Sequence record: OR532814.1
Strand: one strand, 5' to 3'
From: Klebsiella phage RCIP0020
Length of the DNA: 64,000 bases
Within the stretch, counting starts at the first letter, position 1; the number at the start of each line of letters is the position of its first letter. The translations under genes were made by a program, and so were the position numbers. Shown piece after piece: positions 41,269 to 42,462 of this stretch. The notes beneath the pieces were generated by a model. The model did not search any database. It was not told where the DNA came from and saw only the letters and a list, made by a program, of their open reading frames with translations.

Positions 41269-41347
41269 AGGATCTCCTTTCCTCTATTTAGCGGGGAACG
41301 GGATCAAAGCGGCCTGACGGGGTAATATAAAAATTTGAAGAAAATGC

Positions 41348-41376
41348 TTGACCTTTTAAAATCTTTGATCTATAAT
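41348..41376 (+). promoter_or_regulatory. sigma70-type promoter P1: TTGACC, 17-nt spacer, TATAAT
   Basis: Near-consensus hexamers with optimal spacing, inside the 330-bp AT-rich island and facing the 41617 ORF. Confidence 0.6.
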
Positions 41377-41463
41377 AATTATTAATTAAAATTTTATCAA
41401 AAAGATCCAACAAGATCAAGTAAAATTTAATAAATAATTTATTAAAAATTTTTAGATCTGATC

Positions 41464-41492
41464 TTGAATTCATAAATTTTATGATCTATAAT
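41464..41492 (+). promoter_or_regulatory. sigma70-type promoter P2: TTGAAT, 17-nt spacer, TATAAT
   Basis: Second tandem promoter. Shares the gatcTATAAT context with P1. Confidence 0.55.
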
Positions 41493-41616
41493 ATATTAAT
41501 ATTTTATTTTATCATAAATTTTTATGAAGATCAATACCTAGATCTAATAAATTTTATGCTTTTTCTGAAAACTTTTCCTTTACCCCGTCACTAAATACTG
41601 GTACTATGTTCCCATA

Positions 41617-42426
41617 TTGGAAATCAGGAAAAACAAAATGACTCACTTGAAAAAATTCAAAGAATTTCTGACCGAAGGTAAAACCCTCGCTCGTACCGTA
41701 GCACGTGGTCAACGCGCTAAAACTTCCGATAAACATTCAATCGGTTTTCTTCACTTCAAACATGGTTCTGATTTCGAAGTTTTAGCACCGGATTCTCACG
41801 ATCTGGCATACTTCGGTAAAAACATTGTACGTTTGAAAGGTATGACTACTGGTAAAGTTCAAGCGGCTTATGTCGATTGGGCTAAAGGTACTGTTTCTTT
41901 CTACAGTGGCAATCCGGATGATGATCTGGATTTCGACAAACCAGAAAAATTCAAAGCTGCTACTCTGTATGAAGAGGCGGAAGAAAATCTGGATCTGTAT
42001 AACCAGTTAGCAGAAGATTTCGAAATCGAGATCCCTATGGATGAAGCTCTGGTGAAAGGTAAAGTTTACAAACTCCCAAGCAACGATATGCGTCTTCTGT
42101 ACACTGGGCGTTCTAAAACTAAAGCAAGCGGTGAATATGCAGTGTTTACCGTAGTTGATGCTTCCGGCAAACCTCGCCTAGTATCTGGTAAAAAATTCAC
42201 CCAAGAATATAAAGGCGATATGGTTTCTAAACTGGTTCTGGCTGAATCCGAAGATCTGAATGAAGCGGCTAAAGGCATTCGCGAAAAAGTTATTGCTGTG
42301 ATGGTGAAACGCGGGTTTAACGAAAAAGATGCAGAAAAGATGGTTGACAAAAACCTGAAAGATGCTATGAAAGTTAGACCTGGTGCGACCCCTGGCAAAC
42401 TTGCAGAAATAGTTAGCACCCTGTAA
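41617..42426 (+). CDS. candidate internal (head-packaged, injected) protein with a capsid-targeting-sequence-like N-terminus; function unknown
   Basis: N-terminus MTHLKKFKEFLTE-G resembles the T4 IP capsid-targeting sequence MKTYQEFIAE, with an L-x-E gp21 cleavage motif. Codon choice is cgt/ggt/ctg-rich, typical of highly expressed genes. Confidence 0.5.
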   Translation: MEIRKNKMTHLKKFKEFLTEGKTLARTVARGQRAKTSDKHSIGFLHFKHGSDFEVLAPDSHDLAYFGKNIVRLKGMTTGKVQAAYVDWAKGTVSFYSGNPDDDLDFDKPEKFKAATLYEEAEENLDLYNQLAEDFEIEIPMDEALVKGKVYKLPSNDMRLLYTGRSKTKASGEYAVFTVVDASGKPRLVSGKKFTQEYKGDMVSKLVLAESEDLNEAAKGIREKVIAVMVKRGFNEKDAEKMVDKNLKDAMKVRPGATPGKLAEIVSTL

Positions 42427-42430
42427 AAAT

Positions 42431-42458
42431 AAAGCCCCTTCCTTTCGGTTGGGGCTTT
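42431..42458. terminator. bidirectional terminator AAAGCCCCttcctttcggttGGGGCTTTTT (identical to 4783-4810)
   Basis: Between the convergent 41617 ORF (+) and gp2 (-). Confidence 0.6.
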
Positions 42459-42462
42459 TTGA

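Follow-up and report, generated by a model that had tools for sequence, protein, structure and literature searches.

A predicted injected internal head protein encoded between late genes 3 and 2 of Klebsiella phage RCIP0020

We analysed a stretch of 64,000 nucleotides (nt) of Klebsiella phage RCIP0020 (OR532814.1; hereafter the window), with attention to a single gene that lies between late genes 3 and 2. The open reading frame (ORF; 41638-42426, plus strand, 262 aa plus stop) encodes a member of phrog_7322, a family of unknown function. Judging from its sequence, the product is probably the precursor of a T4-type internal head protein that is packaged in the phage head, processed and injected, and that works as a binder. 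It is new among the internal proteins that bear a capsid-targeting sequence (CTS), which are themselves an already known kind. An initial annotation of the same DNA had proposed an internal, injected protein, and that reading is much strengthened here: the leader is invariant at key positions in the family, matches the functional CTS positions, is unique in the genome and is portable between proteins, and the phage has genes for the cognate protease and scaffold. Over this region the sequence is 100% identical to that of Klebsiella phage RCIP0002 and of ~130 other KP15/Miro (Slopekvirus)-type T4-like phages of Klebsiella and Enterobacter.

The start ATG of the ORF yields the N-terminus MTHLKKFKEFLTEG, and the GenBank records use the same ATG. 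Residues 1-13 (MTHLKKFKEFLTE; 41638-41676, plus strand) form a CTS-like leader with a predicted gp21 cut after Glu13 (L-T-E↓G), a resemblance to the T4 CTS that had been pointed out in the initial annotation. Across 14 aligned clusters the consensus leader of the family is M-K-[STN]-F-K-E-[FLM]-[LI]-x-E↓[SGV]. The Phe, the Lys and the cleavage Glu (F7, K8 and E13 in the window protein) are invariant in these clusters, the next ~20 residues are variable, and position 8 is Leu or Ile in all aligned clusters except P0007 and P0008, which have Asn there after a one-residue deletion. Distant members recovered by profile search retain the leader as well (MKNFKEFMTE, MKNFKEYLNE, MKQFKQFLSE), with the exception of the distant member P0019, in which it is divergent. 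In the T4 genome record IPI starts with MKTFKEF, and IPII and IPIII start with MKTYQEFIAE↓A.

Suppressor experiments on the leader of T4 IPIII assigned residues 4 and 7 to head targeting and residues 8 and 10 to processing, gp21 cleaves by the rule L/I-x-E, and an Asp at CTS position 10 prevents cleavage (PMC9026906). All four functional positions (4, 7, 8 and 10) are kept in the ORF family: the targeting residues, an aromatic one at position 4 and a hydrophobic one at position 7, are present, and position 10 is Glu, not Asp. The predicted site FLTE↓G has the same tetrapeptide as the T4 gp23 maturation site FLTE↓A, in which the cut falls after Glu65; the aligned site in the gp23 of this phage is FLAE↓A.

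The phage encodes a homologue of gp21 (60% identity to T4 gp21; Pfam Peptidase_S77, E = 2e-73) and homologues of the scaffold proteins gp22 (Pfam T4_CASP) and gp67 (Pfam GP67), all three assigned on the near-identical genome of RCIP0002. The gp67 of this phage starts with MKEFIE↓A, and that of T4 with MEGLIE↓A. Genome-wide searches were made on a 174-kb genome rebuilt from RCIP0002 and the window, which carries an indel difference of ~190 bp upstream of the region and is thus a close proxy. In a six-frame scan of this rebuilt genome the leader was present at one ORF start only. No homologue of T4 IPI, IPII or IPIII was identified in it, and no paralogue of any domain of the ORF protein was found in the genome.

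The leader was also back-translated to a degenerate DNA pattern and scanned in IMG/VR, using the same codons in shuffled order as a control. The pattern gave at least 120 loci, versus 14 for the control. About 93% of the matches listed lie at ORF starts, preceded within a few codons by an in-frame stop, and at 98 of the 120 leader loci listed there are T4-like genes within a few kb (a locus was taken as T4-like if it carries a homologue of a gene of this phage), most commonly terminase, neck and sheath genes. The 118 leader ORFs of at least 50 aa among the matches listed fall into at least 57 clusters with unrelated mature parts. At the free positions of the pattern, the matches listed prefer Thr or Ser at 3, Phe at 7 (91%) and Ser or Ala at 11, and these preferences are the same as in T4 and in the ORF family. 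A TAAATA box lies within 60 nt upstream of 46% of the leader matches listed, compared with 4.4% of random windows, and often sits 15-25 nt upstream. Some contigs (L048 and L053) carry tandem pairs of leader genes, like ipIII and ipII in T4.

The leader thus appears to be a lineage-wide address label shared by numerous unrelated proteins. Exactly this property defines the T4 CTS, and the portability is the strongest computational argument for prohead loading of the ORF product. A search of N-termini with MK[TS]FKEF[LIV]xE[SA] could catalogue the candidate injected proteins of T4-like phages. In T4 the 10-residue CTS leader has been used for loading foreign proteins into heads (PMC9026906), and the conservation of the leader suggests that the same trick could work in these phages.

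Signals for both early and late expression precede the gene. The proximal promoter P3 (TTTACC-17-TACTAT; 41579-41607, plus strand) is of the T4 early type and aligns with TTGAYC-17-TATCAT of the relatives. The 60 nt upstream of the ATG can be aligned between the window, RB16, RB43 and two metagenomic relatives, and a P3-type promoter is conserved in all five lineages; the sequence upstream of T4 ipI, as read from the T4 record, holds TTTACA-17-TACTAT. Inside the P3 spacer is a late-promoter-like box, ACTAAATA (41590-41597, plus strand, 40 nt 5' of the ATG), and a TAAATA box occupies the same spacer position in all five aligned lineages, as an exact TATAAATA in the metagenomic relative L009. 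TAAATA boxes are found 5' of 26 of the 256 genes in the genome, mostly late genes; boxes of the form TATAAATA or xxTAAATA precede gp19, gp20, gp22, gp23, gp24, gp6, gp7, the holin gene and gp3. Given the conserved P3 with its embedded late box, the gene is most likely expressed both early and late. The ip genes of T4 are likewise expressed early as well as late.

Farther upstream are two putative sigma70-type promoters on the plus strand, both with a GATC abutting the -10: P1 (TTGACC-17-TATAAT; 41348-41376; 11 of 12 consensus matches) and P2 (TTGAAT-17-TATAAT; 41464-41492; 10 of 12). Both had been described initially as near-consensus, as they do appear to be, but that description was incomplete in that it lacked the conserved proximal early-type promoter with its late box. 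P1 and P2 lie in the first and second copy of a ~115-bp tandem duplication, would give mRNA leaders of 255 and 139 nt, and belong to an island that is specific to Slopekvirus. Only 15 sites in the 174-kb genome match 11 of 12 as P1 does, and promoter-like sites of all kinds show a modest excess in the 3-kb region (13 versus 6.9 +/- 2.5 in shuffles). A reading of TGCTTGACC at P1 as a MotA box was rejected, with ~19 nt to the -10 where MotA boxes require a spacing of ~12 nt.

The codon usage of the ORF is like that of very highly expressed genes, as had been suggested. Measured against the usage of gp23, gp18, gp19 and gp22, its codon adaptation ranks 10th of 256 genes, and it is the top gene of more than 150 aa outside this reference set.

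The predicted mature protein has 249 residues, a mass of 27.6 kDa and an isoelectric point (pI) of 7.9, and it is composed of three modules encoded on the plus strand. A variable linker leads into a conserved N-terminal beta-sandwich domain with a C-terminal helix (residues 14-128; 41677-42021), which is followed by a middle small beta-barrel domain resembling SH3, Tudor and CarD domains (residues 129-205; 42022-42252) and by a swappable C-terminal three-helix module (phrog_9411; residues 206-262; 42253-42423). The model of the whole protein has moderate confidence (predicted local distance difference test, pLDDT, 73), with low-confidence linkers at residues 128-136 and 204-211. A fold search in BFVD returned only uncharacterised phage proteins. 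The N-terminal domain has a structural match in Vibrio phage nt-1 (R9TJK7; template modelling score, TM, 0.62). The conserved His and Asp residues of the close members are lost in distant ones, and because they are not kept there we see no catalytic site.

The phrog_9411 module also occurs in stand-alone ORFs of 50-70 aa and at the start of another protein. The family has two alternative modules at the C-terminus, and some members consist of the N-terminal domain alone. Phage KMI7 provides the closest comparison (L149 2043-2495 versus window 42180-42475): the DNA is near-identical as far as codon ~205 and then from the stop codon on, and wholly different in between. This is a clean replacement of the C-terminal module, with breakpoints at the inter-domain linker and at the terminator. 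The mature protein resembles a binding protein in which one part is constant and another, which would confer specificity, can be exchanged. Such an architecture is more in keeping with an injected host-interaction protein than with a purely structural protein.

From the anatomy of the gene, its leader, the machinery genes, the expression signals and the modularity of the product, we infer packaging, cleavage, injection and an intracellular target. The gene would be transcribed from its own promoters, namely P3 (with host-sigma70 early activity and the late box) and, in this genus, the two strong upstream sigma70 promoters, and the protein would be made in quantity. During prohead assembly, the leader core KKFKEFLTE would dock the protein onto the gp22 scaffolding core. 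Cleavage by gp21 after Glu13 would then free the 249-residue, 27.6-kDa protein, which would be retained in the head with the DNA and ejected with it into the next host cell. There it would act by binding, not catalysis, through its conserved N-terminal, SH3-like and exchangeable C-terminal domains, with the C-terminal module most likely setting the target specificity. An anti-defence role is a guess, for which the swapping of the C-terminal module gives the sole indirect support. By analogy with T4 IPI*, the inhibitor of GmrSD type IV restriction, the protein would arrive with the DNA and could act stoichiometrically before phage gene expression. The setting is different in that these phages are reported to carry an unidentified DNA modification (PMC5219037) and not the glucosyl-hydroxymethylcytosine of the conflict between IPI* and GmrSD. 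No similarity in sequence or fold between the ORF protein and IPI* or another known inhibitor was found.

With T4 IPI, IPII and IPIII the ORF protein shares the type of leader and the predicted gp21 cut at L/I-x-E. It also resembles them in having its own sigma70-type promoter upstream and a mature part unrelated to the others, as the mature parts of the T4 proteins are mutually unrelated, and its gene is in the same neighbourhood as T4 ipI (ipI-57B-57A-1-3-2-4). Unlike the T4 genes, it is located between genes 3 and 2 in the opposite orientation and is the only such gene in its genome. The mature part has no sequence similarity to IPI-III, and it differs in being larger and near neutral, with three domains and an exchangeable C-terminal module.

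Several points count against assigning the product to the internal proteins. The mature protein is near neutral with a mass of 27.6 kDa, whereas T4 IPI-III are smaller and basic (full-length pI 8.9-9.5); a small basic mature protein is typical of the class, if not strictly defining (Alt is large), and the ORF protein departs from it. The leader of the window phage is offset by +3 residues (MTH-LKKFKEFLTE, with F7 and F10), whereas the other members and T4 begin directly with MK. The late box is of a variant type, ACTAAATA, at a distance of 40 nt from the ATG, whereas the boxes among the listed IMG/VR matches cluster at 15-25 nt. The conserved N-terminal domain is also found at the C-terminus of a leaderless 304-aa protein, gp193 of Aeromonas phage CC2 (L008 3356-4270), and must therefore be useful without packaging; the neighbours of CC2 gp193 are small ORFs annotated only as hypothetical. 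Finally, the searchable literature yielded no virion proteome of either Slopekvirus or Pseudotevenvirus. A proteome paper on a Jiaodavirus (PMC13119998) was set aside as it concerns a different genus, and the literature search found no transcriptome or earlier description of the ORF family.

The protein could be packaged and yet have a structural role, in assembly of the prohead core or in condensation or ejection of the DNA, with the variable C-terminus being incidental. Such a role would agree with the fixed position of the gene beside head-completion genes in all relatives, with the strong conservation of the N-terminal domain and the very high codon adaptation, and with this being the sole CTS-bearing ORF of the genome; in addition, mutants in IPIII slow T4 head assembly (PMC9026906). 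However, the C-terminal module is cleanly replaced between near-identical phages and comes in three alternative forms in the family, a pattern typical of host-interaction proteins, and the mature protein is not basic; we regard a purely structural function as unlikely. We consider it very unlikely that the product is an ordinary early cytoplasmic protein, involved in host take-over or with an accessory function, that is never packaged and whose N-terminal resemblance to the CTS is irrelevant. The two strong sigma70 promoters, the orientation opposite to the surrounding late genes and the leaderless homologous domain in CC2 are what would be expected of such a protein. Yet no other segment outside the core domain is as conserved as the leader, which matches the four functional CTS positions and is portable, being found on at least 57 unrelated families on T4-like contigs; the late-promoter box is conserved, and the codon usage is like that of abundant structural proteins.

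A further alternative concerns the DNA upstream of the gene, where an AT-rich island studded with GATC sites (island 3; 41296-41676; GC minimum 0.14) could serve mainly as an origin of replication or an unwinding element like T4 oriF, tied to Dam through its GATC sites, with the ORF merely lying downstream. In origins of the oriF type, a promoter transcript persists as an R-loop in a downstream unwinding element and primes replication. That the promoters sit in an AT-rich island had been noticed before, and the GC content is indeed 0.19-0.21 in 200-bp windows versus ~0.42 in the flanks. The island contains 9 GATC sites, compared with the 0.55-0.83 that base composition predicts for different choices of interval. 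Its only G/C-rich inverted repeat brackets the whole island, with arms 254 nt apart: the left arm is TGACGGGGTAA (41315-41325, plus strand) and the right arm, read as TTACCCCGTCA on the plus strand (41580-41590, minus strand), overlaps the -35 of P3. In RB16 and RB43 the gap between gp3 and the ORF (L006 2760-2960 and L007 2760-2950, respectively) holds a short AT core between GC-rich inverted repeats, GAGCGAAGCGAA... and ...TTCGCTTCGCTC. The architecture of inverted repeats around an AT core is conserved in the pseudotevenviruses, though the sequences are unrelated.

Only three stretches of the rebuilt genome fall below 26% GC. Island 1 (rebuilt-genome 11061-11481) is between gp24 and uvsY, directly upstream of uvsY, and island 2 (rebuilt-genome 81201-81601) is between rnh and gp55. 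Together with island 3 they hold 6, 9 and 9 GATC sites, where ~0.7 would be expected, and they share blocks of 23-38 nt and contain 5 of the 6 GATCTATAAT motifs of the genome. Each begins with ACGGGG[AT][AT]A, and island 3 has this motif inverted at both ends. The phage also encodes a Dam-type methylase, and the islands may function as origins, as promoter clusters sensitive to Dam, or as both.

In the T4 annotation oriF is at the 5' end of uvsY, whose transcript serves as primer, and island 1, directly upstream of uvsY, is exactly at this position. The likeness to oriF consists of a promoter with a strongly AT-rich stretch of 14-25% GC and of the sister island at uvsY. This match, the occurrence of only three such related, GATC-rich islands in the genome, the methylase gene and the unusually long leaders from P1 and P2 all speak for an origin. 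Against it, the exact positional match holds for oriF alone, and the other two T4 origins agree only roughly in position: oriG is found within gene 34, at 2.2 kb, and oriE belongs to gene 5, at a distance of several kb from island 3. Island 3 itself is not at a T4 origin position. RB16 and RB43 have no GATC cluster at the site, and T4 oriF is not known to have clustered GATC sites. We give a low probability to island 3 being mainly an origin, a role that would be compatible with a packaged product of the ORF and would not exclude it. It seems distinctly unlikely, on sequence features, that all three islands are origins, that the primer transcript of island 3 doubles as the mRNA of the internal protein, and that Dam acting at the -10 GATC couples origin firing and protein synthesis to the replication state.

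Our preferred reading, an injected internal protein, would matter beyond this phage. Slopekviruses (KP15, KP27, Miro and relatives) are, like the pseudotevenviruses, widely collected as therapeutic phages for Klebsiella and Enterobacter, and no injected protein of theirs is annotated. If injected, the ORF protein would act before any phage gene is expressed and would be a prime candidate for a determinant of host range or anti-defence. The exchangeable C-terminal module would, if this is true, be a natural handle for engineering.

The ORF family is narrow, with 14 clusters among 5.8 billion proteins. When 1.84 billion representatives were searched exhaustively with a profile, just 13 proteins came up, and there was no distant relative with an annotation. 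Searches of Pfam, NCBIfam and PDB sequences with the ORF and its variant modules gave nothing significant, and matches in PHROGs were only to families of unknown function. Among annotated phages, tblastn identified the family in Slopekvirus, in Pseudotevenvirus (RB16, RB43, Lw1, Miller, GAP161 and others), in Yersinia phage JC221 and in Pantoea phage Phynn; Aeromonas phage CC2 has one domain only. The homologues are annotated as hypothetical in every record examined, except for one called "tail completion protein". In RB16, RB43 and two metagenomic contigs the gene is also located between gp3 and gp2 on the opposite strand, and on a third metagenomic contig, which ends just upstream of the gene, it adjoins gp2. 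The metagenomic relatives have 54-65% protein identity.

The initial annotation had called the unit a moron-like cassette inserted between genes 3 and 2. The autonomous unit of promoter, gene and terminator holds up well, but a recent insertion does not, as the unit keeps its location and orientation across two genera and their metagenomic relatives and has native composition (ORF GC 0.41-0.43 versus 0.419 for the genome). Because of this fixed position and orientation across genera, together with native GC and codon usage, the gene appears to be an old resident of the lineage rather than a moron acquired recently. Compared with T4, the phage nevertheless has here an additional unit that is autonomous in its transcription. 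Like a moron, it has its own terminator and, by consensus matches, its own sigma70-type promoters with AT-rich upstream DNA, and it lies between genes that are adjacent in T4 and is transcribed against the surrounding late genes; unlike a moron, it has been kept stably at a single position in different genera, and its GC content and codon usage are native. The PeSL cassettes of RB49 and phi1 (PMC2839356) are similar in having a sigma70-like promoter with AT-rich upstream DNA. They differ in their GGGG..CCCC promoter hairpin, in place of which the window has an 11-nt inverted repeat with arms 254 nt apart around the whole island.

The gene boundaries required some correction. The ORF had been given as 269 aa with a strong Shine-Dalgarno sequence; the ORF itself stands, and its length is 262 aa from the ATG. 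The longer version is reached only via an unlikely TTG at 41617, which lacks a ribosome-binding site, and the extension has no counterpart in the alignment of homologues. The TTG at 41647, which would give a perfect MKKFKEFLTE, was also rejected as a start, its Shine-Dalgarno sequence being 17 nt distant. The Shine-Dalgarno sequence of the ATG, AGGA (41626-41629, plus strand), has an 8-nt spacer and is moderate rather than strong. Two further ORFs annotated in some records, one of 61 aa on the minus strand (41288-41473) and one of 38 aa on the plus strand (~41481-41594), are low-complexity AT-rich translations overlapping the promoters and are probably not genes.

Downstream of the ORF, a bidirectional intrinsic terminator (42431-42458, both strands) is common to the ORF on the plus strand and gp2 on the minus strand. 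It folds equally well in both directions, with energies of -20.3 kcal/mol for one strand and -19.4 kcal/mol for the other (z ~ -3.2). Its reuse after gp25 had been noted in the initial annotation, and there is an exact 28-nt copy at 4783-4810, directly 3' of a gene matching Pfam GPW_gp25, with the two copies 37.6 kb apart. The stem is identical in RB16 and has one loop-proximal change in the metagenomic relative L009, and the flanking A and T runs are kept in all three. Besides terminating transcription, this twice-occurring stem-loop may be a recombination hotspot.

The flanking genes are all encoded on the minus strand. To the left is gp3, the tail tube terminator or tail completion protein (40738-41268; 38% identity to T4 gp3, E = 8e-46; Pfam Phage_T4_gp19 family), followed by gp1, the dNMP kinase (40043-40738; Pfam DNMK). 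To the right are gp2, the DNA end protector (42463-43317; 47% identity to T4 gp2, E = 2e-89), and gp4 (43333-43800), beyond which gp53 and gp5 are on the plus strand. The gap between gp3 and gp2 is 1194 bp (41269-42462), compared with 106 bp in T4, in agreement with the 1.2-kb opposite-strand unit described earlier between these T4 neighbours, and the plus-strand ORF is the single convincing gene within it. Since the transcript from gp4 and gp2 is stopped by the shared terminator, gp3 requires its own promoter. A late-promoter-like box, CTAAATA (41285-41291, minus strand), is found 16 nt 5' of the gp3 ATG and fits this role, with its function judged from sequence; the same xCTAAATA variant is also present 5' of gp6 and of the holin gene.

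In RB16, a homing endonuclease gene lies between gp2 and gp4 (L006 4681-5370) and is absent from the window and from RB43, which indicates that the neighbourhood of gp3 and gp2 does take up mobile insertions. At the position of T4 57B, the window has a minus-strand gene (39093-39728) with a match to Pfam Acb1 (anti-CBASS; E = 2e-47), which is called "RNA ligase" in some records. This Acb1-matching gene is 1.9 kb from the predicted internal-protein gene, and in T4, 57B directly adjoins ipI.

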